Notes under the pieces: model-generated
Told to the model about the DNA's origin: nothing
Seen by the model: the letters and a program-made list of their open reading frames with translations, nothing else
The model's database searches: none
Program-made: the position numbers and the translations under genes
Part shown: positions 7,706 to 60,295 of the stretch, one piece after another
How the letters are laid out: each line of letters opens with the position of its first letter
Numbering within the stretch: the first letter of the stretch is position 1
From: an uncultured Chloroflexia bacterium
Lineage (GTDB): Bacteria > Chloroflexota > Limnocylindria > Limnocylindrales > CSP1-4
Assembly (NCBI GenBank): GCA_963705425.1
Contig: CAVPJO010000006.1
Span: 60,599-124,598 of the forward strand
DNA length: 64,000 nucleotides
Direction of reading: 5' to 3'

Positions 7706-9282
<1,577 letters not shown>

Positions 9283-9286
<4 letters not shown>

Positions 9287-10431
9287 CGTTCGAGGCGCGG
9301 CGCATGGCGGAGAGCCGCATCGGTCGGTCGGGCATCATCGCCATCGGCGCCATCGTCACCATCCTCGCGGTCACGGGCGGCGCCTTCATCATCGCCGGGG
9401 CCGATCCACTCGATGCCTACTACGCCTACTTCATCGAGCCGCTGACCCGCGAGTTCACGCTGCTGGAGGTGCTCAACAAGGCCACGCCCATCCTCTTCAC
9501 GGGCACGGCCGTGGCCATCGCCTTCCGGGCCGGCTACTGGAACATCGGTGTCGAGGGTCAGCTGCTCATGGGCGCGGTCGCGGCCGCCGGCATCGGCCAG
9601 CTGGTGCAGGGCTGGCCGCCGATCCTGGTCTTGCCGCTGATGGTCGCGGGTGGCGCGCTGGCGGGTGCCGCCTGGGCGCTGGTGCCGGCCCTGCTGCGTG
9701 TGCGCATGGGCATCGACGAGGTGGTGACCACGCTGCTGCTCAACCCGGTGGCGCTGCTCGTCGTGCAGGCGCTGCTGCATGGTCCCTGGAAGGACCCCGA
9801 GACCGGCTTCCCGGAATCGCCGCGCATCGCGGAGGCGGCGGAGTTCCCGCAGCTGTCCGAGTTCATCCCGCTCATCGGCAAGTCGCGTCTGCACCTCGGC
9901 TTCGTCATCGCCATCGTCATCATCGTCATCGCCTGGTGGGTGCTGAGCCGCACCTCCACGGGCCTGCGCGTCCGTGCCGTCGGCCTCTCGCCACACGGTG
10001 CCCGCTTCGCCGGCATCAAGGTCGAGCGCACGCTGCTGCGCGTAGCGCTCATCAGCGGCGCCATCGCCGGCATCGCCGGCGTCAGCGAGGTGGCCGGCAT
10101 CCAGTTCCGCCTGACCGAGGGCGTCTCCCCGGGGTTTGGCTACACCGGCGTGGTGGTGGCCATGCTCGGCGGGCTGGCCCTGCCCGGTGTGCTCATCGCC
10201 GGCCTGCTGCTGGGCGACCTGAGCGTGGGTGCCTCGTCGGCCGTGCGCAGCCTGCAGATCCCCAGCCAGCTGGGCGATGTCGTCCAGGGCACGATGCTGC
10301 TCGTGGTCGTGGGCGCCGTGGCCGTCTATCGCTGGCGCACCACCCGCGAGGATGACCGGCCGGCCGATGAGGGCGAGCCCCCACCCGATGAACCGGAGGG
10401 CCAGCCGCCCACGGAGACGTCGCCGACATGA
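9283..10431 (+). CDS. ABC transporter permease (BMP/nucleoside-type, first of two)
   Basis: Intact 382-aa polytopic ORF with an ATGA overlap to the ATPase gene. Multiple hydrophobic helices. Position fits the SBP-ATPase-permease-permease order. Confidence 0.8.
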
Positions 10432-12408: not shown

Positions 12409-14796
12409 GTGATGAAGCCAGTCGCCCGCCGCGCAGGTCGTGCCCATGCCCCGATGCTGGGCCTGGTGCTGATGGTCGCGTTGTCGGCCCTGGCCACCGG
12501 GTCCGCTGCCAGCCCGGTCGCCGCACAGGAGGCGACCGACTGCGATCGCGGCTGGTTCGACGTCGAGTTGCGCGAAGACATCGCCCCCGAGGAGGTGGTG
12601 GCCCTCGCGGAGGACGAGATCTGGGTCGCCGGTGGGGCCATGCTGGGTGGCGGCCGGCGACAGGCGGTCACCCTGCACGGTGACGCCGACAGCTGGGACC
12701 TGCAGGTCCCGCCCGGACCCGACGAGCGCGACACGGGCTTCATGGGCATCGCCGCAGCGGGTCCCGGCCAGGACGTCTGGGCAGTCGGCTATGCGCGCGA
12801 GGTCGACTACGTCTCGGCCATGACCGCCGTTCGCCGCGAGGGTGGCTGGCATCTGACCGACGTCATGCGGCCCGGTGGCGAGGGCGCCACGCTGGTCGAC
12901 GTCGATGCTGCCCCGGGGGCGGGAGTGTGGGCGGCCGGCTTCATCCAGGGACCACCCGGCGACCAGCGAGCCTGGATGCTCGAGCGCGTCAACGACGGCT
13001 GGGAGGCGTCGCAACCACCCCTGGGCGACGGTGAGCGGGCCACGCTGGCCGGCCTGTCCGTCTCTGACGAAGGCGGGGTCTGGGGCGCCGGTACCGTCCT
13101 CAAGGGTCCCGGCATGCGGCCCTACCTCGTGCAGCGCATCGACGACGGTTGGCTGCGCCACGATGTGCCCGGGCTCGAGGGGGCAGCCCTGGCCGACATC
13201 GACGTCCCAGCCGTGGACGATGGCTGGGCCGTGGGGCACCGCCTCAGCGGCGAGACCATCGCACCGCTCATCCTGCACTGGGACGGAAACGCCTGGCTGG
13301 AAGCCGGGGGCCCGGACGTCGGCTCCGAAGCGACGTTGCTCACGAGCGTCGCGCGCGCCGAGGGCGTGCTCACGGTGGGCGGCACCACCTGGCACCCGGG
13401 CAAGGGCCGCTATGTCGGCTGGGTCGCCCGCGATGACGGTTCCGGCTGGACCGTGACGGTGTCGCGACCAGGCTGGGGCATGGGCACCGTCACCGACATC
13501 GACGGCGATCCGGGCACGAGCGGCTGGGTGGTCGGCCGCATGGACGAGGGTCTCATCGGGCGCGTCTGCGCCTCACCGTCTGCCCCGCTCGCAACGGAGG
13601 AGATCAAGCCCGCGACTCCGACCGGGGTCACGCCCCCCAGGGAGGCCACATCACCCAGCGCCATCGCGGGCGCGGTCGTCGCACTCGACGTGACCAAGGC
13701 GGCAGGCCTGCCCACCGAGAGCCAGAGCTGGGGCTCGGTCGCGGCCGACTTCGACGGTGACGGCCTCGATGACATCTTCCTCGGCCGCCATGGTGCCCGG
13801 GCAGCCCTGTACCTCAACGCCGGTGGCCGCTTCGAGGACAGCGAGCGCAAGTTCGGGGGCGGTGACCGTCACGGCTGCGTGGCCGGCGATGTCGACGGCA
13901 GCGGCCTGCCCGACCTGTACTGCTCGTTCGGCGCCTCTCGCGGCACCGGCACCAAGGCCAACCAGCTGTGGCTCGACCCGGGAGGCGCCACGCCCCAGGA
14001 GCACCCGCGAGCGGGAGGTGCCACCGAGCCACTGGGCCGCGGTCGTCAGGCGCGCCTCCTCGACATCGACGAGGACGGCCACGCCGATCTCCTCCTGGGC
14101 CAGGAGACCAAGCGCATGGACGGTCAGCCATCCACCAACCGGGCCTTCCTCAGAACCGGTCCAGCGCGCTTCGAAGCGGCCGAGATACCCGGCTTCGATA
14201 CGGGTCTGGCGACCGAGTCACTCGACATCGCCGACTACGACGGAGACGGGCGCGTAGATGTCCTGCTCGTGTACTACGACAAGCGCGCCGGGGAGCCCAA
14301 GGCCGGCATCCGTCTTTATCGCAACGAAGAGGGCCCCGCCTTCACCGATGTCACGGCGGAGGCCGGCATCGCGACCATCGACGAGCGCGACGCCGAGTTG
14401 AGGGACATGGACGGTGACGGACGGCCGGACCTGGTCCAGCTCTCCGAAGAGCGCGTCCTGGTGTCTGCCCTGCGCGACGGACGCTTCGAACCGATCTTCG
14501 AGCGGCACGTGGATTCAGCTGCGGCGCTGGCCACGGGTGACGCCGACGGGGACGGGGACCGTGACATCTACGTGCTGCAAGGCAAGTCGGACGAGGGCGC
14601 CCACGACCTCATCCTGCTCAACGACGGTGACGGTGCGTCATTCGTGGAACTGGCCGTGCCCGAGGTCAAGGGCGGCAGCGAGGACGACGTCGTGGCCCTC
14701 GACTACGACGGCGATGGGCGGACGGATTTCCTCGCCACCAACGGCCGCAACAGCGCACGCGGGCCCGTGCAGCTCATCACGCTGGGGCCCGCGTAG
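12409..14796 (+). CDS. Secreted FG-GAP/VCBS-repeat protein with N-terminal propeller-like repeats (795 aa)
   Basis: N-terminal signal peptide. The C-terminal half has at least 7 FG-GAP-type motifs (ADFDGDGLDDIFLG, GDVDGSGLPDLY, DIDEDGHADLLLG, DYDGDGRVDVLLV, DMDGDGRPDLVQ, GDADGDGDRDIYV, DYDGDGRTDFLA). No frameshifts. Confidence 0.8.
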   Translation: MMKPVARRAGRAHAPMLGLVLMVALSALATGSAASPVAAQEATDCDRGWFDVELREDIAPEEVVALAEDEIWVAGGAMLGGGRRQAVTLHGDADSWDLQVPPGPDERDTGFMGIAAAGPGQDVWAVGYAREVDYVSAMTAVRREGGWHLTDVMRPGGEGATLVDVDAAPGAGVWAAGFIQGPPGDQRAWMLERVNDGWEASQPPLGDGERATLAGLSVSDEGGVWGAGTVLKGPGMRPYLVQRIDDGWLRHDVPGLEGAALADIDVPAVDDGWAVGHRLSGETIAPLILHWDGNAWLEAGGPDVGSEATLLTSVARAEGVLTVGGTTWHPGKGRYVGWVARDDGSGWTVTVSRPGWGMGTVTDIDGDPGTSGWVVGRMDEGLIGRVCASPSAPLATEEIKPATPTGVTPPREATSPSAIAGAVVALDVTKAAGLPTESQSWGSVAADFDGDGLDDIFLGRHGARAALYLNAGGRFEDSERKFGGGDRHGCVAGDVDGSGLPDLYCSFGASRGTGTKANQLWLDPGGATPQEHPRAGGATEPLGRGRQARLLDIDEDGHADLLLGQETKRMDGQPSTNRAFLRTGPARFEAAEIPGFDTGLATESLDIADYDGDGRVDVLLVYYDKRAGEPKAGIRLYRNEEGPAFTDVTAEAGIATIDERDAELRDMDGDGRPDLVQLSEERVLVSALRDGRFEPIFERHVDSAAALATGDADGDGDRDIYVLQGKSDEGAHDLILLNDGDGASFVELAVPEVKGGSEDDVVALDYDGDGRTDFLATNGRNSARGPVQLITLGPA

Positions 14797-45587: not shown

Positions 45588-46998
<1,411 letters not shown>

Positions 46999-47007
46999 GT
47001 CGCGAAT

Positions 47008-47775
47008 CTACTGCAGGTTGACCAGCAGCCCCCCGTCGACGATGACCTCAGCGCCATTGATGTAGCGGGCCTCGTCACGAACCAGCAGCCTGACCACGTC
47101 CCCGATGTCGACCGGATCGCCGATACGCCCGACCGGGATGCGTCCCTGGAAGTACTCCGTCTTGCCCGGCTGGGCGAAGTCATCGCGGTTGATGTCGGTG
47201 GTGATGGGGCCGGGCAGGACCGCATTGCAGGTGATGCCGTGCGGGCCGAGCACGATGGCCATGGACCGCATCAGCGCAGCCAGGCCGGCCTTGGTCGAGC
47301 AGTAGTGGGCCTGTTCCGCGCCACCGACCAGCGCCGAGATCGAGGAGATGACGATGATGCGCCCACCGGCTCCCCGCTCGACCATGGCCCTGGCCGCGGC
47401 CTGCGCCGTGAGGAACGCGCCCTTGAGGTTGACCGCGTGAGTCCGGTCCCAGGTCTCCTCGGTCAGTTCGAAGAACGGGGTGAACGGACAGATCCCGGCG
47501 TTGAGCACGACGACATCGAGGTGGCCCAGCTGCTCCAGCGCCCGGGCCACCATGGTCTTGACCGCAGGGCCGTCGGCCATGTCGGCTTGGAGCAGGACCG
47601 CCTCGCCGCCGACAGCCTCCACTTCGGCGGCAGCCTCGCGGGCAGCCGCTTGGTTGCTGTCGTAGTTGATGCCCACTGCATAGCCGTCGGTCGCGAGAGA
47701 GACCGCGATGCCGCGGCCGATGCCCCGCGAGGCGCCGGTCACCAGCGCAGTGCGGCGCTCCTGTGTGGCATTCAC
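47008..47775 (-). CDS. SDR family oxidoreductase (FabG-like)
   Basis: TALVTGASRGIGRGIA, NAG and YCSTKAG motifs. Intact. Confidence 0.85.
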   Translation of the reverse strand: MNATQERRTALVTGASRGIGRGIAVSLATDGYAVGINYDSNQAAAREAAAEVEAVGGEAVLLQADMADGPAVKTMVARALEQLGHLDVVVLNAGICPFTPFFELTEETWDRTHAVNLKGAFLTAQAAARAMVERGAGGRIIVISSISALVGGAEQAHYCSTKAGLAALMRSMAIVLGPHGITCNAVLPGPITTDINRDDFAQPGKTEYFQGRIPVGRIGDPVDIGDVVRLLVRDEARYINGAEVIVDGGLLVNLQ

Positions 47776-48263: not shown

Positions 48264-48684
48264 GGCCCGACGATACGCCTCTGGTCGCTGCCGATGGAGG
48301 GCCCTTGGCCCGACGGCTGGTCCGGGTGCTGCAGCCTGACCTCATGTGTCCAGGCGACGATGTCGCGGGCTCGCCCGGCGGTCGTGGCCGGGCGCGAGGC
48401 GACCTGGGTCACGAGAGCACCGCCCGGTTCCGAGCCTGGCACGATGTCGCGCCCGACCCCTGGCTGCTGCAGGCCGTCGCATCGGTCGAGTTCGCTCGTG
48501 GGCTGCACAGGCCGGGTCCGTGGCCGGGCCGGTCACGGCGCCGAGAGGCCGTCGCGCGAGGCCAGCGTCGGCCCAACAGACGGCGAAGTGGCGAGGCGGC
48601 GAGAGGCGCCGTCTCAAGGAGGCAGGAGACTACCGCCACGACGCACGCTCGAACCGCATCCGCGTACACTGCCGTTGTCTTGTG

Positions 48685-48759
48685 CGCCCGTAGCTCAGTG
48701 GATAGAGCGTCTGCCTCCGGAGCAGAAGGTCGTGGGTTCGAGTCCCGCCGGGCGCGCCA
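48685..48759 (+). tRNA. tRNA-Arg: tRNA-Arg (anticodon CCG), CCA encoded
   Basis: GCGCCCGTAGCTCAGTGGATAGAGCGTCTGCCTCCGGAGCAGAAGGTCGTGGGTTCGAGTCCCGCCGGGCGCGCCA. Anticodon stem TCTGC/GCAGA, loop CTCCGGA. Confidence 0.9.
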
Positions 48760-49090
48760 AACCCCCGGTTTCACGCTTACAACGGGCGGATGACCCTGTC
48801 CCTGCGTCGTCGTCGCTCCGCGGCGTCCATGTTGTTGCGCAGAGCATCTGCCGCTTGGCAGAGCTTGCCCTCGAAGCTGGGCTCGGCCTTGGAGTTGTTC
48901 CTGCCGCCCTTGGTGTCTGCCACTCAGCCCTTCCTCTTGCGCCTCCCATCGACGATGGGCGACAGTACACATCAAGATGCTCAGCCAATGAGGTCGTAGG
49001 GCGGCAGAACCGAGAACACCGCAGTCGGTGTGGTACGGGGTGAATGGCGACTGCGAGTGGCGCTGTCCACCTCCCTGCAGAAGAAACATC

Positions 49091-50302
49091 TCAAGAGCTG
49101 TCCTCGTCCCCGACCGCGTCCATCACGTCGGGAGCGACGTACATATCCTGATGTCCACGCGTGCCTACCTGGCTGAGTATCCCGAGCTCCTTGAGCCTCT
49201 GAACCTGCCGACGGGCATTGTGGTAGGGAACATCCAAGAGCTCTTGCGCCAGCGCGATCGTGATGAATGGCCGCTCAATCAGACGGCCCGCAAGCATGAC
49301 CGCACCTCCGGGTGCACGGGCGGATGCAGCGCGATCTTGCAGGCTGTCGCGAAGTTCGAACAGGCGCTTCGCACGCGTTGTTGCGTCCTTTGCCTGGATA
49401 GCCACGCCCTGTAGGAAGAACGAGAACCAGGCTGACCACTCCCCTCGTTCGGTGACGCCCTGGAGTCTCTCGTAGTACTCGACGCGGTTCCTTTCCAGAT
49501 ACGCGGAGAGATAGAGAAGCGGCAAAGGCAGAAGGCCCCAGTGAACGAAGAGCAGAGAGACGAGCAGACGGCCTACCCGCCCGTTCCCGTCATTGAACGG
49601 GTGGATGGCCTCGAACTGGTAGTGGATGGCGGCGAGGCGGACAAGTCGATGGAGCAATGGGTCGTCGGAACGTGCGTACTCCTCAAACTGCTGTAGGGCG
49701 TCGCGCATCTGAACTGGCGGAGGCGGAATGTAGGTCGCAGTGGTGAGCGTTGCCCCAGGTGGGCCGATCAGGTTCTGTCCGTCACGAAACTCGCCGGGAG
49801 TCAGCTCTCGGCCCCGTACGCCCCGCATCAGATGGGAGTGAAGTTCTCGTAGCAGCGCCAAAGACACCGGATAGTGCTGGATGGCGTCGATACCTCTATT
49901 GAGAGCTGTCACATAGTTGAGGACCTCGCGAACATCCCGTGGCTGCCCGCGACGGGTCCGAGTGTTCTCGTCCTCATCGTCGGCCACTCCAGGTAGTCGG
50001 AGTTGTGCTTCGAATGCGTACAAGTCCGCGATCGTCGCCTGGGTTCCCTCGATTCGCGACGATAGGACGGCTTCCTTCCTGAGAAACGGACTCAGCAGGA
50101 TATTTGCGTTCGCCAGATTGCTGCCTGCGCCAGCGAGTTCGCCAAGGGCTCCCGCCGCATCGCCGAGCACGGTGGCGAGTGGAGCGTCGAACTCGAACTG
50201 GGGCGGGAGGGCGCCGGGCACCCAAGCCCAGTAGTCAAGGCCGTGGTGCTCCGCCCGCACCGAGTGGCCGGGTCCGCCCCAGGATCGTGGGTCTGTGACC
50301 AT
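49091..50302 (-). CDS. Fic/DOC family protein with N-terminal Fic_N-like domain
   Basis: HPFNDGNGRVGRLL (Fic motif HPFx[D/E]GNGRxxR) and upstream SSRIEGT. 403 aa, intact. Confidence 0.8.
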   Translation of the reverse strand: MVTDPRSWGGPGHSVRAEHHGLDYWAWVPGALPPQFEFDAPLATVLGDAAGALGELAGAGSNLANANILLSPFLRKEAVLSSRIEGTQATIADLYAFEAQLRLPGVADDEDENTRTRRGQPRDVREVLNYVTALNRGIDAIQHYPVSLALLRELHSHLMRGVRGRELTPGEFRDGQNLIGPPGATLTTATYIPPPPVQMRDALQQFEEYARSDDPLLHRLVRLAAIHYQFEAIHPFNDGNGRVGRLLVSLLFVHWGLLPLPLLYLSAYLERNRVEYYERLQGVTERGEWSAWFSFFLQGVAIQAKDATTRAKRLFELRDSLQDRAASARAPGGAVMLAGRLIERPFITIALAQELLDVPYHNARRQVQRLKELGILSQVGTRGHQDMYVAPDVMDAVGDEDSS

Positions 50303-50523
50303 GCGTCTACTCTAGCGTAGAGTTACATCTGATGTCAGCCCATGTAACTCTAGCGACAGCGACTTACAGGAATGTCAATAGAGATCGGTGAAAGTCCATC
50401 TGGCCCCCCAGGATGTCACTGGCGTCAACGCACACAGGAAAGGACCCGCATTTGACAGCACGATACCTCGACGCATTCAACCCCCCACCGCACGCTCATG
50501 CCACAACGCTTCGGGTCGGATAT

Positions 50524-50585
50524 CTCCGGAGCAGAAGGCCGTGGTTCGAATCCCGCCGGGCGCGCCACTCCCTTGGCTTCACGCT
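50524..50585 (+). repeat. Partial direct repeat of the 3' half of tRNA-Arg plus about 20 nt of its 3' flank (att-like scar)
   Basis: CTCCGGAGCAGAAGGcCGTGG-TTCGAaTCCCGCCGGGCGCGCCActCCCttGGcTTCACGCT compared with 48713-48780 CTCCGGAGCAGAAGGtCGTGGgTTCGAgTCCCGCCGGGCGCGCCAaaCCCccGGtTTCACGCT. Confidence 0.65.
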
Positions 50586-50873
50586 AGTGAGGAGTGACGT
50601 CCCGAGTCGGCCGTCAACGGCAACCTGCGGTTCCACATCGAGTCAGCGAACACACCGCGATGATCACGCTTGCCCCAACAGCCAGGACAGGTACGCGGAC
50701 TCGGGCCCAGCAGGGTCGCAGCTTCCCGCCGCCGCCCATGTGTTGCGATCAGGTGTAGTCCAATCGGGCCATGGGCCCGTACCAGCGATCCGGTGCCCGA
50801 TGTGGTCGAGAGCGGTAGCGTCCCCACTAGGCCTACGGCCCATGCGCGAAAGTCATGCATTTGGGGGTACTTG

Positions 50874-51953
50874 GTGTTCTACAGCAGACGAATCCGACTC
50901 ACACTGATGGCGACGATGGCGGCAGTGCTCGCGGTGGGCACCATGGGCGCAGCCGGCGCTGAGCCTGAGGAAGGCTCCGAGCTCCACTTCCTGAACTGGG
51001 AGGAGTACGTCGACCCGCAAGTCGTCGAGGACTTCGAAGCGGAGTTCGGCATCGACGTCATCATCGACTTCTTCTCAGACGAGAACGAGCTTGTGTCGGT
51101 CATCCAGGCTGACACGTCGCGATACGATCTCTTCACTACCTCTGACGCGACGCTCCACGAGATGATCGTGCAGCGGCTCGTCGCTGAGCTGGACCTCGAC
51201 AACATCCCGAACCTGGTCAACGTGGATCCGCGCTACCTCGATCTGCCCAACGATCCCGGCAGCAAGCACAGTGTGCCCTACGACTGGGGCACGACAGGGC
51301 TCGTCTACAACACCGACTGCATCCAGCCCGAAGAGGAATCCTGGAGCCTGCTGATGGACCCGCGTGTTCGCGGACGAATCGGCATGGACACGGACTTTCA
51401 GGTGGTCCTGGGAAGCGCCTTGAAGAGCCTGGGCTACCCGCTCAACTCGGGTGATCCGGCGCAGATCGAGGAGGCGGTGGATCGCTTGATGGAGTTGAAG
51501 TTGGATCAGGGCATGGAGTTCATCGTCTGGAACGACATGCTCGATCGGGTCACTGCGGGCGATCTGTGTGTGGGGCTCGCGTTCAACGGTGACGCGGCCG
51601 TCTACATGGATGAGTACGACAACCTTGGATACTTCGTGCCCACTGAGGGGTCGGATTTCTACCTCGACGTCCTGGCCATCCCTCGCGATGCTCCGAACAA
51701 GGCCGCTGCAGAGTCGTTCATCGACTATCTGCTCAGGCCGGAGGTGCATGCCGCGAACAACGAGTACACGGGCTACGCCGTCCCCAATCGGGCGTCCATC
51801 GAGGAGGGGTACGTCAGCGCAGAGATACTGGCTGACCCCGTCATCTATCCGGACACTGCCGGTCTCGAAGCGTGGATGCCCTTTGCCGCGGACTCTGACC
51901 GTCTGGGTCTCTGGAACGAGGCCTGGTCCAGATTCGTCCTGGCGACCAGCTAG
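50874..51953 (+). CDS. Periplasmic polyamine-binding protein, PotD/PotF/NspS-like (orphan SBP; alternative start 50907)
   Basis: Signal peptide RRIRLTLMATMAAVLAVGTMGAAGA. PotD-like blocks (LHFLNWEEYVDPQVVEDFEAEFGI, VPYDWGTTGLVYN, DFYLDVLAIPRDAPNKAAAESFIDYLLRPEV). Confidence 0.75.
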   Translation: MFYSRRIRLTLMATMAAVLAVGTMGAAGAEPEEGSELHFLNWEEYVDPQVVEDFEAEFGIDVIIDFFSDENELVSVIQADTSRYDLFTTSDATLHEMIVQRLVAELDLDNIPNLVNVDPRYLDLPNDPGSKHSVPYDWGTTGLVYNTDCIQPEEESWSLLMDPRVRGRIGMDTDFQVVLGSALKSLGYPLNSGDPAQIEEAVDRLMELKLDQGMEFIVWNDMLDRVTAGDLCVGLAFNGDAAVYMDEYDNLGYFVPTEGSDFYLDVLAIPRDAPNKAAAESFIDYLLRPEVHAANNEYTGYAVPNRASIEEGYVSAEILADPVIYPDTAGLEAWMPFAADSDRLGLWNEAWSRFVLATS

Positions 51954-51973
51954 TCCAGGGCCGTAACGGACGC

Positions 51974-54445
51974 GTGTCGCCGTTTCGATCGTCGCTTCGC
52001 CGCATCGTCCTTGGAGGCAGCTTCCGAGGACGATTCGGCCGCGCCTCAGTGCTCACCGCACTGGCACCCCTGCTGGCGCTGGCCCTGGTCTTCGTGACGT
52101 CGGCGCGAACCGATCTCGAAGGCGTGGCCAGAGAAAACCTGGCGAACCAGGCGCGCCTCCAGGCGACTGCGGTGGACAGCGTCCTCAAGAACGCAAGCGA
52201 GGCCGTGGGGGTGCTGGCGGCCAATCCCATCCTCCGCGATGAGGATGCGGAACCGGAACAGATCCGTCAGCAGCTCGACGCCTATAGCCAGTTCGACGAG
52301 ATCGTGCTCTTGCACCCGGCCGGAGTGGTCATCGAGGCTACGTCGTATCGCTTCTCCGGCCGTTGGGATGCGAACGCCGCCTTCCGTGGCGCGATGGCGG
52401 GGCGACAGGTCATGACACCGCCGCTCTTCTATTCCGATCCAGATCGACTCGTCGTTGAGCACGCCGCTCCGGTCATCAGAGACGGTGACGTCGTGGCCGT
52501 GGTCGTGGGTACCATGAACATGGATCGCGTTTGGCAGGCCCTCGACGACGTCACCATCGGGCGGTCCGGCTACTTCGCTGCATTCGACCAGCATGGCAAT
52601 GTCATCGCACACCCGGACAAGTCGCTGGTCCTCCGGAAGTTGGAGGGCTTCCCGTCCTCGAGCGATGGCTCGAGCGAGACTCCCGTTCGATACGTTCAGC
52701 CCGATGGAACGGCCCAGGTCGGCTACAGCGTGACCGTCCCATCCTCCGGGTGGCGCGTGGCTGCGCTCGAGCCGGAGGACGAGGCCTACGCTATCGCAGA
52801 TACGGCGGTGTCCAGGGTCTGGCTCGTGGCCATCGTGGCCCTGTTGATCGCGCTCGGCACGGTGCTCGTCGTGTCCCGCGCGGTCTCCAAGCCGATGGAG
52901 ACGGTGAACATGGCCATGCGCAGCATCGCCGACGGCCACCTGGAGCAGCGGGTCCGACCGGCAGGACTCGAAGAGATCGACCGGCTGGCGGGCTCGTTCA
53001 ACGCGATGGCCGCCGAGCTGGAGGAGCGCAGCGCTCTGCTGGATGCGGAGATGGCCGAGCGCGACCGCGCCGAGCAGCGCATCAAGTACCAGGCCTATCA
53101 CGACCCCTTGACCGGTCTGCCCAACCGGATGCTACTCAAGGATCGCCTGGACCTGGCCCAGGCGGATGCGCGTCGAAGCGGCGAAGCGTTGGCCCTGATG
53201 TTCCTCGACCTGGATCGCTTCAAGCTGGTCAACGATTCGATGGGTCACACGTTCGGCGACGAGCTGCTCTTGAGTGTCGCCGATCGGATCACCAGCGAGC
53301 TGCGGGAGGGTGATTCGGTGGCCCGTGTGGGTGGCGACGAATACGTCCTGTTGCTGCCGCGCGTGTCGGGCCCGGAAGAGGCCCTCGCGGCTGCTCACCG
53401 GGTCGTCGAGAGTCTGCGCGTGCCCTGGGAGGTGGACGGCAGGGAGTTCCACCTCACGGCCAGTATCGGGATCGCGTTGTACCCCGGTGACGGGGTCGAT
53501 GCCGAGTCGCTGATGCGGAACGCCGACACCGCCATGTATCAGGCCAAGGAAGAGGGGCGGGACCGCATCCGGGTCTTCCGAGCCGAGATGGACGAGAGCG
53601 TCCAGCAACGGGTGAGGCTCGAGCAGGACCTGCGCCTCGCGCTGCAGCTGGAGCAGTTCGTGCTCCACTACCAGCCCCTGGTCCATTCCGATACGGGTCG
53701 CGTCACCGGCATGGAAGCGCTGCTGCGCTGGGACTGTCCCAAGCGTGGACTCGTGCCCCCGGACAGGTTCATCTCCCTCGCCGAAGAGACCGGTCTCATC
53801 TGGGAACTCGGCCGCTGGGTGCTCAGGACGGCCTGCGCCCAGGTCCAGGCCTGGACCGCATCCGGGCAGATCGATAGCTTGTCGGTGTCTGTGAATGTCT
53901 CGGCTCGGCAGTTCCATGACATGGGCATCGTCGACGAGGTCCAAAGCGCCCTGGCCGAGACGGGCCTGCCTCCAGGCCAACTCGAGCTCGAGATCACCGA
54001 GAGCACCGCGATGCGCGACGTCGAGCACAGCATACGAACGCTCACCCGGCTCAGGGAGATGGGTGTGCGCGTGTCGATCGACGACTTCGGTACCGGCTAC
54101 TCCTCGCTCTCATACCTCAAACGGTTCCCGGTCGACATCGTCAAGATCGACCGCTCATTCGTGATGGACATCTCCCACGACCCCGATGATGCCGCCATCG
54201 TGGCCGCCATCATCGCCCTGGCCAGGAGCCTCAAGATGGAAACCGTGGCCGAAGGGGTCGAAACGGACGAACAACTCGCATTCCTGCAGGCGCACGGTTG
54301 CCCGTCATTCCAGGGGTTCCTCTTCAGCAAGGCACTGCCCCCAGCGGAACTGGTTCGACTGCTGGCCGACGGCGCATTCCGGGAATCCGAGCCGCGCGAC
54401 ACGACGATGCCAGCGCTCCGGCGGCAGCTCGCGCTCAGCCAGTAG
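51974..54445 (+). CDS. Membrane-bound sensory GGDEF-EAL protein (periplasmic Cache-like domain, HAMP, diguanylate cyclase and phosphodiesterase domains), MbaA-like
   Basis: TM helix, an about 250-aa periplasmic domain and a second TM helix. HAMP. RVGGDEYVLLL (GGDEY variant). EAL domain with GMEALLRW, DDFGTGYSSL and KIDRSFV. 823 aa, intact. Confidence 0.9.
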   Translation: MSPFRSSLRRIVLGGSFRGRFGRASVLTALAPLLALALVFVTSARTDLEGVARENLANQARLQATAVDSVLKNASEAVGVLAANPILRDEDAEPEQIRQQLDAYSQFDEIVLLHPAGVVIEATSYRFSGRWDANAAFRGAMAGRQVMTPPLFYSDPDRLVVEHAAPVIRDGDVVAVVVGTMNMDRVWQALDDVTIGRSGYFAAFDQHGNVIAHPDKSLVLRKLEGFPSSSDGSSETPVRYVQPDGTAQVGYSVTVPSSGWRVAALEPEDEAYAIADTAVSRVWLVAIVALLIALGTVLVVSRAVSKPMETVNMAMRSIADGHLEQRVRPAGLEEIDRLAGSFNAMAAELEERSALLDAEMAERDRAEQRIKYQAYHDPLTGLPNRMLLKDRLDLAQADARRSGEALALMFLDLDRFKLVNDSMGHTFGDELLLSVADRITSELREGDSVARVGGDEYVLLLPRVSGPEEALAAAHRVVESLRVPWEVDGREFHLTASIGIALYPGDGVDAESLMRNADTAMYQAKEEGRDRIRVFRAEMDESVQQRVRLEQDLRLALQLEQFVLHYQPLVHSDTGRVTGMEALLRWDCPKRGLVPPDRFISLAEETGLIWELGRWVLRTACAQVQAWTASGQIDSLSVSVNVSARQFHDMGIVDEVQSALAETGLPPGQLELEITESTAMRDVEHSIRTLTRLREMGVRVSIDDFGTGYSSLSYLKRFPVDIVKIDRSFVMDISHDPDDAAIVAAIIALARSLKMETVAEGVETDEQLAFLQAHGCPSFQGFLFSKALPPAELVRLLADGAFRESEPRDTTMPALRRQLALSQ

Positions 54446-54449
54446 GGGC

Positions 54450-54830
54450 ACGGTACGCCGCCGCTAGCGGCGCGGGTCGAGCGCGGCCGGGATCTCCGCT
54501 GCGCCTGTCTCGCGACCCGTGGGTCGACCGCATCCGAAGAGGTCACCAAGGCCACATTCCTGCGTGCCCATCGGTCACTCGTCGGCCTTGATGGAGCCGC
54601 GACAGTCCGCCCGTGGCTCATGGACGTCACCGCGACGGTCGCGAAGACGCAACTCCGGCAGCCCCATGCCGACACATGCGGAGCGTGAGGCGTTGGCGGC
54701 AGCGTTTGACGGCCTGACCGACCGGGACCAGCGCATCATCGAGTCCCGCTACGGCTTCGACCTGACTCGCGACGAAGCTGCGGTTCGCATGGCCTCAAGA
54801 CCTGAGGGGCGTGGCTCCGGTCAGGGCTCG
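54450..54830 (+). pseudogene. Remnant of an ECF-type sigma-70 family factor (regions 2 and 4 in different frames)
   Basis: EEVTKATFLRAHRSLVGLDGAATVRPWLMDVTATVAKTQLR (region-2-like) in one frame. EREALAAAFDGLTDRDQRIIESRYGFDLTRDEAAVRMA (region-4 HTH) in another. Confidence 0.35.
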
Positions 54831-55216
54831 AGGGTGACCACCGTCCAGCCGGCCAGGCCGTCAGTCGGGCAGGAGCCCGATGTGGTGACGAGGATCCGCT
54901 CTCCAGCCTCAGCGGCCTCGCGGTAGGCGTCGATCTCGCTGAAGTCACATGGTGCGTAGACCGAGCTGTCGCGGAAACGCAGCCGATCCTGCCAGGAGTG
55001 GATGAGGTCCTTCTCGGTGGCCAGTGCGAACTCCGAGTAGCTCTGGTCGTCGATCCGGTCGAGCTCGCCGGGCACCTGCCGCCAGACCTCCCTCATGGGA
55101 AAGGAGCTGTCGACCACCACGAACACCCGCTCGGTGTCCCGTGACAGCGAGATGAGCACGGCGAGCGCCCCGAAGACGAGCAGCAGCCCGGCCAGGAAGA
55201 TAGCCAAGGGCTTCAA
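54821..55216 (-). CDS. Small N-terminally anchored membrane/secreted protein, last gene of the TelA/vWA operon
   Basis: MKPLAIFLAGLLLVFGALAVLISL anchor. Lies 5 nt downstream of the vWA gene. Confidence 0.5.
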   Translation of the reverse strand: MKPLAIFLAGLLLVFGALAVLISLSRDTERVFVVVDSSFPMREVWRQVPGELDRIDDQSYSEFALATEKDLIHSWQDRLRFRDSSVYAPCDFSEIDAYREAAEAGERILVTTSGSCPTDGLAGWTVVTLEP

Positions 55217-55221
55217 GCTGC

Positions 55222-56922
55222 CTAGACCCCGGCGTTGAAGAGCGACACGAGCTTGAACTCGACATCGCCCTCACTGGCATTGATGCTGGCCGCCTCCACC
55301 AGGGAAGCCAGCCGGCCAAGCTCGTCAAGGTCAGCCTCGAAGCCGACCGTGAACACCGGGATGCGCGCACCCGCGATGACCTCGTCGACATCCCCGAACT
55401 CGAGGCCCTCGTTGGTCTCGCCGTCGGTCAACACCACGAGCATGTACTTGCCGCTCGGGTCAGCCGCACGCTGCTCGATGAGCATGTCCAGGCCAAGCAC
55501 GATACCGTCGTACATGGCCGTTCCGCCGACCGGATCCATGTCCTCGACGGCAGCCGCGAAACGAGCCTGCTGGTTGAGGTCGAAGGTCGCGATATCGAGC
55601 ACCTTGCGCACGCTGTCGCTGAACTCGACCATGCCCACCGATGCTGCGGGGTTGATGAACTCGCGAGCCGAGCTCAGCGCGCCCTGCACGGCCACGATCC
55701 GGGAGCCGGCCATGGACCCGCTGGTGTCGGTCACGAAGACCGCGTAGACGGGCCGCCCCGCGTCCTTCTTGTCCTTCCACAGGCTCTGCGCTTCGATGAG
55801 CGTCTGCCCGGACGGGACAGACACATCCGAGACGAAGTCGGGCGGAGCGAAGCCGTACTCAGACGCCTTGTCCCGGAGCTCCTGGCCCTCGATGTGGGCA
55901 GCGAACGACTCCAGGGTCTCCCGCTCCCCCGGCGTCGCGCTGTCGAAGGCATACAGTGGGTTGTCGTGGCGGACCCCGAAGGGGATGAACTCGAAACCAG
56001 ATCGCAGTGAGTCGGTGTTGGCGAAGGTCTGCCATTCCATGACGAAGGCGTCGAGCGTGCCGTTGTCCTTCTCCACCGAGTCCCGCATCTGGATGGTGGT
56101 GAAGGCCACGAACGGCACCTGCTCCTGGAACGCCTGGAAGACGCTGGCCACGTCGGGCGCGACCAGGCGCGCTTCGTCACCCGCGGCGAAATCGTCGAGC
56201 ACGGTGAGCAGGAAGTTGAGCCCGGTCGAGGAAGCGAACGGGTCCGTGTAGCCCATCACCAGCTCGCCGGCGATGACTGCTTCGATGAGCGTCTTGGTGT
56301 CGAGCTCGCCGTACTTCTCGCGAAGCTGCTCCGCGGTCTCGTCCTTCATGACGATGCCGGCCACGTTGGGCACGGTCTGATCGGTCACGACGGACATGGG
56401 CCTGTGCACCTTGGCCATCTCGACCCAGAGGTGGTTGGAAGGGCTGAAGCCGGCGGGCACGTTGTCGCCCGCGGCGATGAACTGGTAGCCCGTGCCCGAA
56501 GCGATCTTGCGGATGGCGACCTTGGCGTCGCGCCCATCGGCCAGCTTCTGGTTCGAGGCGTTGAAGGATTCGGCAGCCTCGACCATCCAGCCATCGATGC
56601 CGGAACCGGACTTCTCGGTGGAGGCGAAGATCTCAGCCACGACCTGGTCGGAGCGCGGCTGCGGATCGACCACGAGCGCGAACTGGCTGATGTCGGGGAG
56701 CGTATCGGCGAGCACCTTCTGCGGCGGCGCCACGCTGGCCTTGCGGGTGACCGGCGCATCGAACCAGCCGATGTCAGCAGCCAGCTCGCTGATGCTCTGC
56801 TCCGCCGAGGCTTGGTCGAGCGGCTCGGTGTCGCCATCGAGATCACCGCTGCAGGCTGTGACCGCCAAAGCGAGCGCCACCAGGGCCGCGATGAGGAGCT
56901 TCGGTCGCGTGTTGTCTGTCAT
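55222..56922 (-). CDS. Lipoprotein with C-terminal von Willebrand factor A (vWA) domain
   Basis: Lipobox LALAVTAC|SG. C-terminal vWA with VYAVFVTDTSGSMAGSR (DxSxS MIDAS), LVVLTDGETNEG and IPVFTVGF. 566 aa. Confidence 0.8.
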   Translation of the reverse strand: MTDNTRPKLLIAALVALALAVTACSGDLDGDTEPLDQASAEQSISELAADIGWFDAPVTRKASVAPPQKVLADTLPDISQFALVVDPQPRSDQVVAEIFASTEKSGSGIDGWMVEAAESFNASNQKLADGRDAKVAIRKIASGTGYQFIAAGDNVPAGFSPSNHLWVEMAKVHRPMSVVTDQTVPNVAGIVMKDETAEQLREKYGELDTKTLIEAVIAGELVMGYTDPFASSTGLNFLLTVLDDFAAGDEARLVAPDVASVFQAFQEQVPFVAFTTIQMRDSVEKDNGTLDAFVMEWQTFANTDSLRSGFEFIPFGVRHDNPLYAFDSATPGERETLESFAAHIEGQELRDKASEYGFAPPDFVSDVSVPSGQTLIEAQSLWKDKKDAGRPVYAVFVTDTSGSMAGSRIVAVQGALSSAREFINPAASVGMVEFSDSVRKVLDIATFDLNQQARFAAAVEDMDPVGGTAMYDGIVLGLDMLIEQRAADPSGKYMLVVLTDGETNEGLEFGDVDEVIAGARIPVFTVGFEADLDELGRLASLVEAASINASEGDVEFKLVSLFNAGV

Positions 56923-56951
56923 GACGCGTTCCCCATTGGTGCGGGTCTGAT

Positions 56952-58154
56952 TCAGGCGTCCCTCTCGACATCGAGCGAGCCGACCGCTGCCGTGCCGCGC
57001 TCGTGCGTCTCGATGGCCTTCTCGGCCTCGGTCGTGAGCTGGTCCAGTTCGACGATGCTGTGCGCCATCTGGGGCAGGGCCTCGCGGCGGTAGCGTGAGA
57101 TCTCATCGAGGGCGATGTTGATGTCACCGAAGGCTGACTTGAGAGCTTCCATGTCCAGCATCGTGCTCGCGGCCTGTTGGTGGATCTGGGTGCCCTGCGT
57201 CTTGAGGCGCTCGGCCGTGCCGGCGATGAGGTCGGATGTGGTGCGGTTGAGCGCCTCGACCTTGTCGAGGACGACCTTCTGATGGGCCACGGCCATGGCC
57301 ACCGCGACGGCGATCTGGAGGGCGCTGATGGTCACGTCCACGGCGCGGTCCACGCCGCGCACGAGCTCGCGGTTGTTGCGGATGATCAGCGCGGTCGCAA
57401 GCACGCCTTGCTGGTTCACGGCCAGCTGCTGCTGCAGGTCCATGGTGCGCTGGCGCAGGATGAAGACGAGCTCCTCCTCGATGAAGGCACGTCGCGGATC
57501 ACCCGGCTCGATCTCCTCGTCGAGCTTGGCGTTGATGGCCGCATCGAGGGCCTGCGCGAGGGCCACCTGCTCAGACAGCGTCAGCGTCAGCTCACGCATG
57601 TTCTTCTGGTCCTCGTTGAGGGTCACGTTGTCGCGCTTGAGTTGATCACGCCCGCTCTCGAGCGAACGGATGATGGCGTCGATGACGCCTTGCGACGTCT
57701 CGAACTGCATGAAGTAGCGCTGCAGTGGCGTGCCCAGGCCCGGGATCATGCGCAGCGTGCGGTTGAACCAGCCCGGCTCGAGATCGAGCGAGGTGGGGTC
57801 CAGCTTCTCGACCTCGATGCGCAGATCAGCCAGGGACTTGGCGACCGGGCCTCCCTCTTCGGTCTCGCGCGAAAGGTCTCGCAAGGGCGCCTGCAGCATG
57901 CGGCTACGACTGGCCGCGCGCCGCTGCAGGTCGCGACCCATGCCCTCGACCGCGTCGATGCTGGTGACCCTGGCGTCCTGGTCAGCGGGGTCCACGGCGA
58001 CGAGCTGGGCGGCATACTCAGCCGCCCGCTGCTGCAGCTTCTGGTCGATGGTCGGCTCGACCACGACCACCTCGGCCTTGGTCTCCTCGACGTTCAGATC
58101 GAGCTTCAGTACGGGGCTCTCGTCCCGGCCCGCGGATCCGGTTTGGCTCGTCAT
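56952..58154 (-). CDS. TelA/YaaN-like toxic-anion-resistance family protein (all-helical, about 400 aa)
   Basis: Size, helical repeat composition, a C-terminal YRREALPQM-type block and linkage to a 2TM XpaC-like gene resemble the TelA/KlaA family. Assigned from family resemblance, not a motif search. Confidence 0.6.
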   Translation of the reverse strand: MTSQTGSAGRDESPVLKLDLNVEETKAEVVVVEPTIDQKLQQRAAEYAAQLVAVDPADQDARVTSIDAVEGMGRDLQRRAASRSRMLQAPLRDLSRETEEGGPVAKSLADLRIEVEKLDPTSLDLEPGWFNRTLRMIPGLGTPLQRYFMQFETSQGVIDAIIRSLESGRDQLKRDNVTLNEDQKNMRELTLTLSEQVALAQALDAAINAKLDEEIEPGDPRRAFIEEELVFILRQRTMDLQQQLAVNQQGVLATALIIRNNRELVRGVDRAVDVTISALQIAVAVAMAVAHQKVVLDKVEALNRTTSDLIAGTAERLKTQGTQIHQQAASTMLDMEALKSAFGDINIALDEISRYRREALPQMAHSIVELDQLTTEAEKAIETHERGTAAVGSLDVERDA

Positions 58155-58207
58155 CTATGCACTCCCTTTGGCTCGCTGACTGGCAACAGCAGCGACGTCT
58201 CCTGATA

Positions 58208-58962
58208 TCAGGTGGTGGCGTATCGGCTGGCCCGATCGGCCAGCTCTTCGAGTGCTTCCATGGCCGCCTCGGCATCTCGCGGGGTCAAGCCGATGGGTGC
58301 GTCCGCGAGGGCGGTCGAGGTGCGGTCGAGCAAGGTCATGGCCGATTCGTTCTGGGCCAGCAGGTAGGTGACCTTAGCCTGTTGTGTGGCCGCCAATGCG
58401 CGGCGATCCTGCAGCGACTCGATCTCTGCCTGCGTGGAGTCACCGGCCTCGCCCTTGAGCTCGGCCAACCTGGCGTCGATGTAGTCGGGGTCGATGGTGC
58501 TGACGCTGCCCATGGCCACCGCGACCTCCCGCAGGTTGCTGATGACCGCAAGGTAGACCTGCTGGGCGGTCGACTGGTAGCGCGCATAGGTCAACTCGCC
58601 GGTCTTGAGGCGCCGGTCGAGCATGGCCGACAGGTTTTCACGCTTCACCGTGATGGCCTGTAGCTGGTGGGCCGGACGCGGGTCGTCGAGTCGCTCCAAC
58701 TCGTCACGGAGCAGGCGCAAGTCCGTGTCGCTCACCTCGGGCAGGGTCGGTGCCTTGAACTGCAGTCGCCTGAGCGTTCCGGTCGCAGCAAGCAAGAGCG
58801 GCCAGGCGACGACGGCGATGATGCCGACCACGACGACCACGACGGCCAGCACCGTCGGCGGCTGCATGAGCATCAGGATCGCAGCCACGAGCACCACCAC
58901 GGCACCGATCGCGATCCAGGAGGGCGGGTAGCTCATGACCGCCTGCCACCAACTCTTCATGC
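58208..58962 (-). CDS. XpaC-like 2-TM protein with cytoplasmic coiled-coil domain, first gene of the operon
   Basis: MKSWWQAV..., two TM helices (IAIGAVVVLVAAILMLM and VLAVVVVVVGIIAVVAWPLLLAA), then a helical domain. Lies 53 nt upstream of the TelA-like gene. Confidence 0.5.
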
Positions 58963-59191
58963 CATCGAACCTCCAGCCTTGATGTGGCCCGCGGAGTATC
59001 CATGATGACTGTCGGCGGCAACGACCGGTAGTCGCAAGAGCCATCCGGCCCACGGGCCGAGAGCGGGGCGAGGAGTCGGGCCAGGGGCCGGGCGCAGACC
59101 ATGTGCTGGCCGTGCGCCCCGGGCTGAACGGCCCCCGACGAGGGTCTGATCGAACGTTCCGAGCGCGCCCGACCAGCTCTAGGCTGGCGGT

Positions 59192-60295
59192 ATGAAACGC
59201 GTAGTGCTGCACTTGACATTGCTTGCGATCATCGTCGCGGCCATGGTCATCGGCATCGCGGCCGGCCTGGCACGCCTGGGCATCGAGGTGCCCACGGCGG
59301 CCATGGAGCGCGCCCTGGACCACGGCCCCATCCTCGTGGCCGGCGTCTTCGGCACGCTCATCTCACTGGAACGCGCAGTGGCCATGCGTACTGTCATGAC
59401 GCGCGGCTGGACGTGGGCTGACGCAGCCCCGGTGCTCGGTGGCGCCGGCACCATCGTGCTGCTGATCGATGGCGCCACCGTGCCCGCGATGGCCTTGCTG
59501 ACCGCCGGCGCAGCCGTCCTGGTCGGGGTCAACCTCGAGATGCTGCGACGCCATCCCACGCTGGATGTGCTGACCATGGCCATCGGCGCAGGCTTCCTGC
59601 TGCTGGCCGACGCGGCCTGGCTGGCCGCGCGCCCGGTGCCCTTCCTGACGCCGTGGTGGATGGCCTTCCTGGTGCTGACCATCACTGGCGAGCGACTGGA
59701 ACTGGCCCGGTTGCGCGTGCAGGGCCGCTTCGCCCGGGCCTCGTTCGCGGTCGCAGCCGCGGTCTACATCGGTGCGCTGCTGTCCATGACCGCCGATGTC
59801 GCGCTGGGCGTCCGCCTGTCCGGCATCGGCATGGTCGCGCTCACGGCCTGGTTGCTGCGCTTCGACATCGCCTGGCTGACCATCCGGCGCCCGGGACTGC
59901 CACGCTTCGTGGCTGCTTGCCTGCTGGCCGGCTACGCCTGGCTGGGAGTGGCCGGGCTCATCGCGGTCATGAACGAGCAGATCTGGGCCGGCTTCAGCTA
60001 CGACGCCTACCTGCACGCCGTGCTGCTCGGCTTCGTGTTCTCGATGGTCTTCGGCCACGCACCCATCATCTTTCCGGCCATCCTGGAGCGGCCCATCAGC
60101 TTCCACCCCATCGCCTGGCTGCCACTGGTTCTGCTCCACGTCGCGGTCGCGGCACGCATCCTTGGCGACGTGGCCATGAACCAGGCGCTGCGACAGGGCG
60201 CGGGCCTGCTGACCGGAGTCGCTATCGCCGCCTACGGCGTGGTCATCGTCGTCGGCCTCAGCGGGGGTCGTGGATCGCGCAGCGGCGGCGGATAG
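59192..60295 (+). CDS. Polytopic integral membrane protein of unknown function (10-12 TM, conserved His residues)
   Basis: 367-aa intact ORF. Hydrophobic helices throughout. FSMVFGHAPIIFPAIL block. Confidence 0.55.
   Translation: MKRVVLHLTLLAIIVAAMVIGIAAGLARLGIEVPTAAMERALDHGPILVAGVFGTLISLERAVAMRTVMTRGWTWADAAPVLGGAGTIVLLIDGATVPAMALLTAGAAVLVGVNLEMLRRHPTLDVLTMAIGAGFLLLADAAWLAARPVPFLTPWWMAFLVLTITGERLELARLRVQGRFARASFAVAAAVYIGALLSMTADVALGVRLSGIGMVALTAWLLRFDIAWLTIRRPGLPRFVAACLLAGYAWLGVAGLIAVMNEQIWAGFSYDAYLHAVLLGFVFSMVFGHAPIIFPAILERPISFHPIAWLPLVLLHVAVAARILGDVAMNQALRQGAGLLTGVAIAAYGVVIVVGLSGGRGSRSGGG

Follow-up and report, generated by a model that had tools for sequence, protein, structure and literature searches.

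A probable genomic island remnant carrying a SoFic-type fic gene at tRNA-Arg(CCG) in a Chloroflexota metagenome-assembled genome

Results

The tRNA-Arg(CCG) gene and its displaced 3' fragment

In this study, a stretch of 64,000 nucleotides (nt) from contig CAVPJO010000006.1 (assembly GCA_963705425.1, positions 60,599 to 124,598 of the forward strand), hereafter the window, was analysed around an intact tRNA-Arg(CCG) gene, which is followed by a short islet carrying a fic gene and then by a partial second copy of the tRNA gene. All coordinates refer to the window unless a related locus is named, and related loci are given by number (L001 and so on). The putative left and right attachment sites (att) are called attL and attR, and the features of the islet are as follows.

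48684..48759, plus strand: tRNA-Arg(CCG), intact (ARAGORN; Rfam tRNA, 71 bits; three-way alignment with the empty site).
48715..48777, plus strand: direct repeat, attL copy (anticodon loop through CCA, then 18 nt of flank).
48816..48923, minus strand: hsdM stump, codons 1-36 from the start codon (tblastn, PADLOC, shuffle test).
49091..50302, minus strand: fic, an intact SoFic-type class II gene for a protein of 403 amino acids (aa) (Pfam Fic_N and Fic; PADLOC; PDB; AlphaFold2 (AF2) and Foldseek; motifs; GC content at third codon positions (GC3)).
50309..50378, minus strand: putative promoter/operator region of fic (inverted repeat, promoter-like site, conservation in homologues).
50524..50585, plus strand: attR, the displaced earlier 3' half of the tRNA with its flank (alignment with attL and with the empty site).

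The two copies of the repeat (48715-48777 and 50524-50585) are identical at 55 of 63 aligned bases with a single 1-nt gap, and the repeat starts at the first base of the anticodon loop (CTCCGG...), takes in the last 45 nt of the tRNA up to CCA and extends 18 nt into the 3' flank. The local alignment score of the tRNA and its flank against the region downstream of fic was 46, compared with a maximum of 20 among 1924 random 398-nt segments of the same window. In addition, a 25-nt pattern of the T arm and acceptor, with three mismatches tolerated, occurs at these two sites only in the 64 kb (0 expected). No further tRNA-Arg fragments were found in the 64-kb window, and none that was convincing in 21 related loci. 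A 15-nt core, CTCCGGAGCAGAAGG (48715-48729), spans the anticodon loop and the 3' anticodon stem, and because these 15 nt are identical in attL, in attR and in the empty site of relatives, the crossover is placed inside the core. Independent support for this structure came from a short-read contig of another assembly (Logan ERR12037370, 1848 bp), which encodes an identical Fic protein and whose span, calculated from the position of the gene in the contig, is about 48731-50578, so that both contig ends fall within the repeats, as expected at a repeat.

Empty sites in relatives

Relatives of the locus were reached by protein clusters and by an exact tRNA pattern scan (one genome per species), and L006, an ENA contig of 142.8 kb, was reached by a protein-cluster search with the downstream solute-binding protein (SBP). 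The pattern scan yielded 21 contigs, all of them from Chloroflexota metagenome-assembled genomes (MAGs), mostly 'MFD' Chloroflexia bins together with one Candidatus Limnocylindrales bin; a scan of genome contigs with the SBP protein turned up no relative. Because the tRNA and the synteny match Chloroflexota MAGs only, the host was assigned to Chloroflexota and is related to Limnocylindrales/'Chloroflexia' MAGs; an actinobacterial host, which the GC content had suggested, was rejected on these grounds.

Several of the tRNA-pattern contigs are syntenic with the window on both flanks, and an uninterrupted site was found in L006, L014, L031, L022 and L024. In L006, the tRNA (9586-9661) directly adjoins the sequence that in the window comes after the displaced fragment, and L006 9617-13591 shares 94.8% identity with window 50524-54498. 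A three-way alignment showed that the L006 empty site equals the window tRNA to the left of the anticodon loop and the downstream fragment of the window from the loop on. In L014, fumC and a 163-aa gene precede the tRNA, which is followed by a NUDIX gene and then by the orthologue of window 59192-60295, and in L014, L031, L022 and L024 alike the 163-aa gene is followed by the tRNA and then, after 0.6 to 1.8 kb, by the orthologue of window 59192. Relative to L014, window 48760-59191 (10.4 kb) is inserted DNA.

The two copies of the tRNA 3' half can also be told apart by their variants. The attR copy has the C and the A of the empty-site tRNA, with one T-stem G lost since, and the functional tRNA of the window has T and G at those two positions, which lie in the variable loop and the T-loop. 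Because the fragment, and not the functional 3' half, shares both single-nucleotide variants of the empty site, the window tRNA is a hybrid, with a resident 5' part up to the anticodon loop and a 3' part from 48730 supplied by the element. The GC content of the islet is 61% against 70% to its left, and the GC3 of fic is 0.70 against 0.82-0.89 in all neighbouring genes, a composition that looks foreign to its surroundings.

It has been described for islands mapped by Islander that a regenerated tRNA and a displaced 3' fragment define the island ends (PMC4383910). Integration of an element is supported here because related MAGs carry the tRNA without the islet, and the locus records a site-specific insertion at the anticodon-loop core with the tRNA regenerated by the element. 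A preliminary description of this DNA, made from the letters of the window, had placed tRNA-Arg(CCG) at the start of the islet, had given the repeat as the last about 45 nt of the tRNA plus about 20 nt of flank at about 85% identity, and had taken it for an attL/attR signature of integration. The tRNA (ARAGORN call at 48684-48759), the length of the repeat (45 plus 18 nt) and its similarity, far above chance, were all borne out, and the integration signature gained the empty tRNA-Arg site in L006, L014 and other relatives and a displaced fragment that retains the pre-integration variants.

The Fic protein

The Fic protein is composed of an N-terminal hairpin with a dimer helix, an inhibitory helix, the Fic core and a C-terminal winged helix. 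Its catalytic motif, HPFNDGNGRVGR (residues 234-245), fits HxFx(D/E)GNGRxxR, and the H, F, D, G, N, G, R, G and R of this motif are invariant in 36 homologues. The inhibitory motif SSRIEG (residues 81-86), at the end of a predicted helix (66-84), fits (S/T)xxxE(G/N) and is likewise invariant in the 36 homologues; it aligns with SSEIEN of SoFic, in which the glutamate is the E73 that is mutated in PDB entry 3zec. The SoFic model of PADLOC matched with E=6e-106 over its positions 5-358 of 361, and phmmer aligned aa 45-394, winged helix included, with the solved SoFic structures in PDB (E about 1e-29). An AF2 model built with the 36 homologues reached a predicted local distance difference test score (pLDDT) of 84.6 and a predicted template modelling score (pTM) of 0.85, and in Foldseek it gave template modelling (TM) scores of 0.75-0.83 to SoFic (3zcn, 3eqx) and to Mycobacterium marinum Fic (7cb8). 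These comparisons point to a divergent member of the SoFic family, not an equivalog, encoded by a gene that is intact and probably functional. In a collection of 5.8 billion protein clusters, no protein exceeded 68% identity to it.

SoFic is a single-gene anti-phage defence that is toxic when expressed (PMC12249575), and EF-Tu AMPylation, dimer dependence and constitutive EF-Tu de-AMPylation have been reported for it (bioRxiv 10.64898/2026.07.09.737422). By analogy, the window protein is best seen as a candidate enzyme of phage defence or translation control, and less well as a secreted effector or orphan toxin. The preliminary description had correctly recognized an intact 403-aa Fic with a canonical HPFxDGNGRxGR-type motif, and had raised, on condition that the protein has no intramolecular inhibitory helix, the idea of a constitutively active, uninhibited enzyme; the latter has to be given up, as inspection for (S/T)xxxE(G/N) revealed the intramolecular SSRIEG aligned with SoFic SSEIEN.

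A class I toxin of the FicT/FicA or VbhT/VbhA type that has lost its antitoxin was considered and rejected, since the inhibitory motif lies within the Fic protein itself and the adjacent small ORF is an hsdM stump. In the E. coli Sofic locus (L011), a 47-aa open reading frame (ORF) directly follows the gene and is probably the published downstream 47-aa antitoxin AS1. In the E. coli DA33133 chromosome this ORF (L011:9077-9220) is unannotated and runs antisense to a 209-aa hypothetical gene (9128-9757). The 48-aa ORF beside fic in the window was likewise tried as an AS1-type antitoxin and rejected, since it has no similarity to the E. coli 47-aa ORF and is an hsdM stump instead.

The hsdM stump and the missing integrase

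The repeat copies are separated by 1746 bp (48778-50523), in which the sole long ORF encodes the 403-aa protein with Fic_N and Fic domains. Downstream of fic and on the same strand lies the 48-aa ORF (48777-48923, minus strand), with its stop at 48777, the edge of attL. Residues 1-36 of this ORF correspond to the N-terminus of HsdM, the methylase of type I restriction-modification systems, and the similarity ends after codon 36. A tblastn search against plasmids gave 15 matches, of which all 14 with an annotated feature fall on hsdM or class I S-adenosylmethionine (SAM) DNA methyltransferase genes and the 15th falls on none; the single plasmid match that was inspected corresponds to hsdM codons 1-33 in an M-S-R operon. 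The PADLOC MTase_I (type I methyltransferase) profile also aligns to the 48-aa ORF, at positions 2-29, and the Smith-Waterman score of the ORF against the plasmid HsdM was 81, compared with 26 +/- 3.8 and a maximum of 53 in 5000 shuffles. Pfam returned no match to the 48-aa ORF, even at E<=10.

A complete hsdM with hsdS and hsdR is not present, and codons 1-36 of hsdM are all that is left. The truncation of hsdM is thereby shown at the level of sequence, and the element therefore once carried fic and, behind it, a type I restriction-modification operon, cargo that was later deleted in part. We infer the former integrase and the exact extent of the loss; that the deleted part included the integrase is suggested by the usual position of int genes beside the tRNA-proximal att site. 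The islet holds no integrase, and 1746 bp occupied by fic and the hsdM stump leave no room for one, in accordance with the preliminary description, which had however let the islet carry only a Fic gene and overlooked the stump.

Viral contigs commonly carry Fic relatives, with at least 526 matching stretches in IMG/VR, some of which lie no more than 2 kb from tRNAs at the ends of contigs. One viral contig (L062:5120-9014, IMGVR_UViG_2831900202_000013) has hsdM, hsdS and a SoFic-type fic in a row, which is another case of the link between Fic and type I restriction-modification that the window retains as a stump. A prophage-like or satellite-like parent of the element is plausible; no parent element of either type was found.

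The upstream region of fic

A perfect 11-nt inverted repeat, TAGAGTTACAT-N13-ATGTAACTCTA (50318-50352), overlaps a promoter-like site, CTGACA-N18-TAGAGT, of which the -10 element ends 6 nt before the ATG, and a TTGACAT lies further upstream (50372-50378). Three fic homologues with unrelated contexts and 65-69% protein identity have TTGACAT and the GTAAC/GTTAC half-sites without any change in their upstream DNA (aligned regions L001:3843-3943, L003:589-689 and L004:155-255), and GTAAsTC and the GTTACAT...ATGTAAC palindrome are also common to the window and the homologue upstream regions. This conservation suggests a portable operator/promoter for the winged-helix domain. Binding of SoFic to the 100 bp directly before its own start codon has been reported (bioRxiv 10.64898/2026.07.09.737422), and a regulatory region moving together with the gene is in line with that finding. 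A terminator scan found nothing.

Neighbouring insertions at the tRNA

To the right of attR, the inserted DNA continues with the following features.

50586..54493, plus strand: block A, with a polyamine-type SBP gene (50907-51953) and a Cache-HAMP-GGDEF-EAL gene (51974-54445) (94.8% identity to L006).
54494..54498, plus strand: CTCCG, the first 5 nt of the att core (the similarity to L006 ends exactly here).
54499..59191, no strand assigned: segment C, with genes for a VWA protein (55222-56922) and a TelA-like protein (56952-58154) and ORFs of unknown kind (replaces the NUDIX gene of relatives).

In L006, a second tRNA-Arg 3' fragment (13587-13631), identical to the 3' half of the window tRNA at 38 of 45 nt, follows the SBP and GGDEF-EAL genes, and beyond it lies the flank that directly follows the tRNA in L014. 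Because block A thus lies in L006 between the tRNA and a second tRNA-Arg 3' fragment, it is itself an insertion without an integrase, bracketed by att repeats in that genome (9586-13631). Past CTCCG, the core in L006 runs on into the tRNA 3' fragment, and the window has instead 4.7 kb of unrelated DNA, segment C, which also includes a small sigma70_r4-like ORF and stands where relatives have the tRNA fragment and the NUDIX gene. Synteny with relatives resumes at the start codon at 59192. Block A also lies directly after a tRNA-Arg 3' end in L033, where the binding protein is 79% identical. The Fic islet is the youngest layer of a 10.4-kb insertion stack at the tRNA. A model of decay and accretion has been published for cis-mobilizable elements (CIMEs) (PMC5704250).

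The 3' side of the tRNA is variable across the clade. In L022 (CAVQUM010000022.1), a 15-nt vestige of the acceptor 3' end, CTGTCGGGCGCACCA, stands within the first 20 nt after the tRNA, right after the CCA of an intact tRNA-Arg, which suggests an earlier integration with its cargo wholly deleted. In L016, L024 and L027, the tRNA and the NUDIX gene are separated by a different module, about 1 kb long and common to the three, and L031 and L026 have yet another gene 3' of the tRNA.

To the left of the tRNA, the class II fumarase gene fumC (45588-46998, minus strand) is split into at least 5 reading-frame segments by at least 4 frameshifts, and relatives have an intact gene of about 465 aa; the split gene is either a pseudogene or the product of local assembly indel errors, the neighbouring long genes being intact. 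A short-chain dehydrogenase gene (47008-47775, minus strand) between fumC and the 163-aa gene is absent in 7 of the 7 syntenic relatives compared and is a second, unrelated small insertion.

Discussion

Origin of the islet

We propose that a mobile element with defence cargo integrated into tRNA-Arg(CCG) and was later reduced by deletion, leaving the SoFic-type fic, and we put the probability of this reading at roughly 80%. The element would have carried a SoFic-type fic under a promoter/operator of its own and, after it, a type I restriction-modification operon starting with hsdM. Strand exchange would have taken place within the 15-nt core CTCCGGAGCAGAAGG, so that the element gave the tRNA a new 3' half and the previous 3' half was shifted 1.8 kb downstream. 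An internal deletion, from about 35 nt inside attL to hsdM codon 36, would then have removed the integrase and the remaining cargo, the outcome being a 1.75-kb att-flanked islet without integrase that resembles a CIME. From homology and the SoFic literature, the Fic protein would be a dimer in which Glu85 of the N-terminal inhibitory helix restrains AMP transfer, and repression of the fic promoter is probably exerted by the C-terminal winged helix via the GTAAC/GTTAC palindrome. Upon activation, for example by phage infection, Fic probably AMPylates a translation GTPase such as EF-Tu and thereby halts growth. The preliminary description had seen here a decayed integrative element that kept a Fic effector or toxin; the decay is supported by the hsdM stump and the lack of an integrase, and the protein is better described as a SoFic-type class II Fic than as a secreted effector or orphan toxin.

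Several observations weigh against this proposal. The score of the Fic protein with the NCBIfam SoFic equivalog model NF046030 was 157 bits, far from its cutoff of 550, and identity to the characterized SoFic is about 27%, so that both target and defence role are extrapolated. No integrase was detected among the six-frame ORFs of the window and the related loci, in a phmmer search with a single tyrosine recombinase query and hence of low sensitivity. An intact relative of the element was not found either, the nearest Fic being 68% identical, and the integrase and the original size are thus reconstructed rather than observed. PADLOC gave no defence match for the other genes of the variable region. 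The contexts of three close Fic homologues, the nearest one among them, differ from the context here and showed no hsdM, integrase or tRNA-Arg arrangement, so that they are uninformative on the parental element. Finally, the islet may have entered this genome inside a larger imported segment and not by its own integration here.

The last point can be formulated as an alternative, in which a longer donor stretch, comprising the tRNA 3' half, the Fic islet, the displaced fragment and block A, was imported by homologous recombination via the left tRNA, and the integration itself occurred in the donor. Block A with the fragment before it (50524-54498) shares 94.8% identity with L006, against 70-87% in the syntenic DNA to its left and right; the block of high identity begins in the tRNA and ends at the att core, and the 18 nt of attL beyond the tRNA are similar to the left end that block A has in L033. 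However, the right end of this block abuts the non-homologous segment C, and a simple two-sided exchange is not evident; L006 itself does not have the Fic islet, and the GC3 of fic (0.70) differs from that of block A (0.82), which indicates different histories. We regard such an import as possible, though on balance unlikely, and it would alter the place of integration, not the nature of the structure.

A second alternative concerns the function of the protein rather than the origin of the islet. Fic might act mainly as a transcriptional (auto)regulator of CccR type or as a housekeeping reversible AMPylase, and not as an anti-phage abortive-infection toxin. The C-terminal winged helix and the conserved palindromic putative operator upstream would suit such a role, SoFic is known to bind its own promoter and to de-AMPylate EF-Tu constitutively (bioRxiv 10.64898/2026.07.09.737422), and close homologues stand in ordinary metabolic neighbourhoods, for example in L001. 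On the other hand, catalytic and inhibitory motifs are both invariant in the 36 homologues, the protein strongly matches the SoFic defence model of PADLOC, linkage of fic is to a restriction-modification stump in the window and to genes for HEPN_AbiV and a helicase in L003, and Fic relatives are frequent on viral contigs. A mainly regulatory or housekeeping role thus appears unlikely to us, somewhat more so than the import from a donor.

It could also be argued that the islet is a still-mobile, integrase-less cassette similar to a CIME, which is moved at tRNA-Arg by an integrase encoded elsewhere, with Fic and SBP-GGDEF/EAL units circulating in the clade. Both att cores are intact and identical across 15 nt, block A offers a second unit without an integrase, enclosed in L006 by the tRNA and a tRNA fragment, and the same block, unusually conserved between lineages, also stands beside a tRNA-Arg 3' end in L033. 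The hsdM stump, however, marks the Fic unit as a deletion product and not as a designed cassette, a second copy of the unit was not found in the 5.8 billion protein clusters, no integrase was identified (in the weak single-query phmmer search), and an excised form was not seen. Present mobility of the islet is therefore doubtful, and the broader version of the idea, that tRNA-Arg(CCG) in this clade is a docking site at which very small integrase-less units are exchanged like cassettes by integrases acting in trans, not a graveyard of independently decayed islands, seems slightly more doubtful still.

That the repeat arose by local duplication, or is tRNA-like by chance, beside a native fic, or that fic is a constitutively active class I toxin that has lost its antitoxin, is suggested by nothing other than the lack of an integrase and of an antitoxin gene next to fic, and both ideas are highly improbable, being refuted by the empty-site comparison (several relatives with empty sites), together with a repeat score far above chance and a foreign composition, and by the motif analysis, in which SSRIEG aligns with the inhibitory glutamate of SoFic and the downstream 48-aa ORF proves to be an hsdM stump with no similarity to the putative AS1.

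Significance and comparison with known systems

No general concept is changed by this finding. The islet is an ordinary kind of genomic island remnant, now with a documented empty site in relatives, and its value lies in a clean, fully bracketed case of island integration with decay and accretion, at a tRNA gene of a soil phylum that has received little study. The evidence set consists of the empty site, the hybrid nature of the tRNA, the 3' fragment displaced downstream and the stump of a cargo gene. A SoFic-type fic with an apparent portable self-operator is placed in the setting of an island remnant, and the tempting view of its product as an orphan toxin free of restraint is corrected. The att core and the hotspot can be used for mapping variable regions in Limnocylindrales-like MAGs, and the divergent SoFic homologue, with its predicted operator, is a candidate for EF-Tu AMPylation and phage defence.

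In its protein, the islet compares with SoFic (Shewanella oneidensis SO_4266 and E. coli Sofic), with which it shares the full-length architecture, both motifs, the fold (TM 0.75-0.83) and the PADLOC match (E=6e-106). It differs in its identity of about 27%, below the NCBIfam equivalog cutoff, and in having no AS1-like small gene after fic, and the defence role is put forward by analogy.

In its structure, the islet has what defines an island, with the exception of an integrase, and it has the descriptive marks of a CIME (att sites kept, integrase gone, deletion). As in the tRNA islands mapped by Islander, the tRNA was regenerated intact, the displaced 3' fragment forms a direct repeat from the anticodon loop, the composition is foreign and relatives have an empty site; in contrast to them, there is no tyrosine integrase here, 1.75 kb are left, and the islet is one layer of a tandem stack. 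With the CIMEs and their tandem accretion in the Streptococcus ICESt1/ICESt3 family and in Streptomyces pathogenicity islands (PMC5704250), it has in common that it is flanked by att sites and stands in tandem with another att-bracketed unit at the same target. The host here is a Chloroflexota MAG, however, in which a parental integrative and conjugative element (ICE), a parental integrative and mobilizable element (IME) or a mobilizing partner was not found, and mobilization is putative. Within Chloroflexota, the best-described site-specific island hotspot is that of the Dehalococcoides ssrA islands (PMC3146451), which share with the islet the phylum, serial insertion at the 3' end of a small RNA, direct repeats and a cargo that varies among strains. 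They differ in target, which is the transfer-messenger RNA (tmRNA) there and tRNA-Arg(CCG) here, and in cargo, dehalogenase genes there against defence and signalling genes here, where no integration module has been kept.

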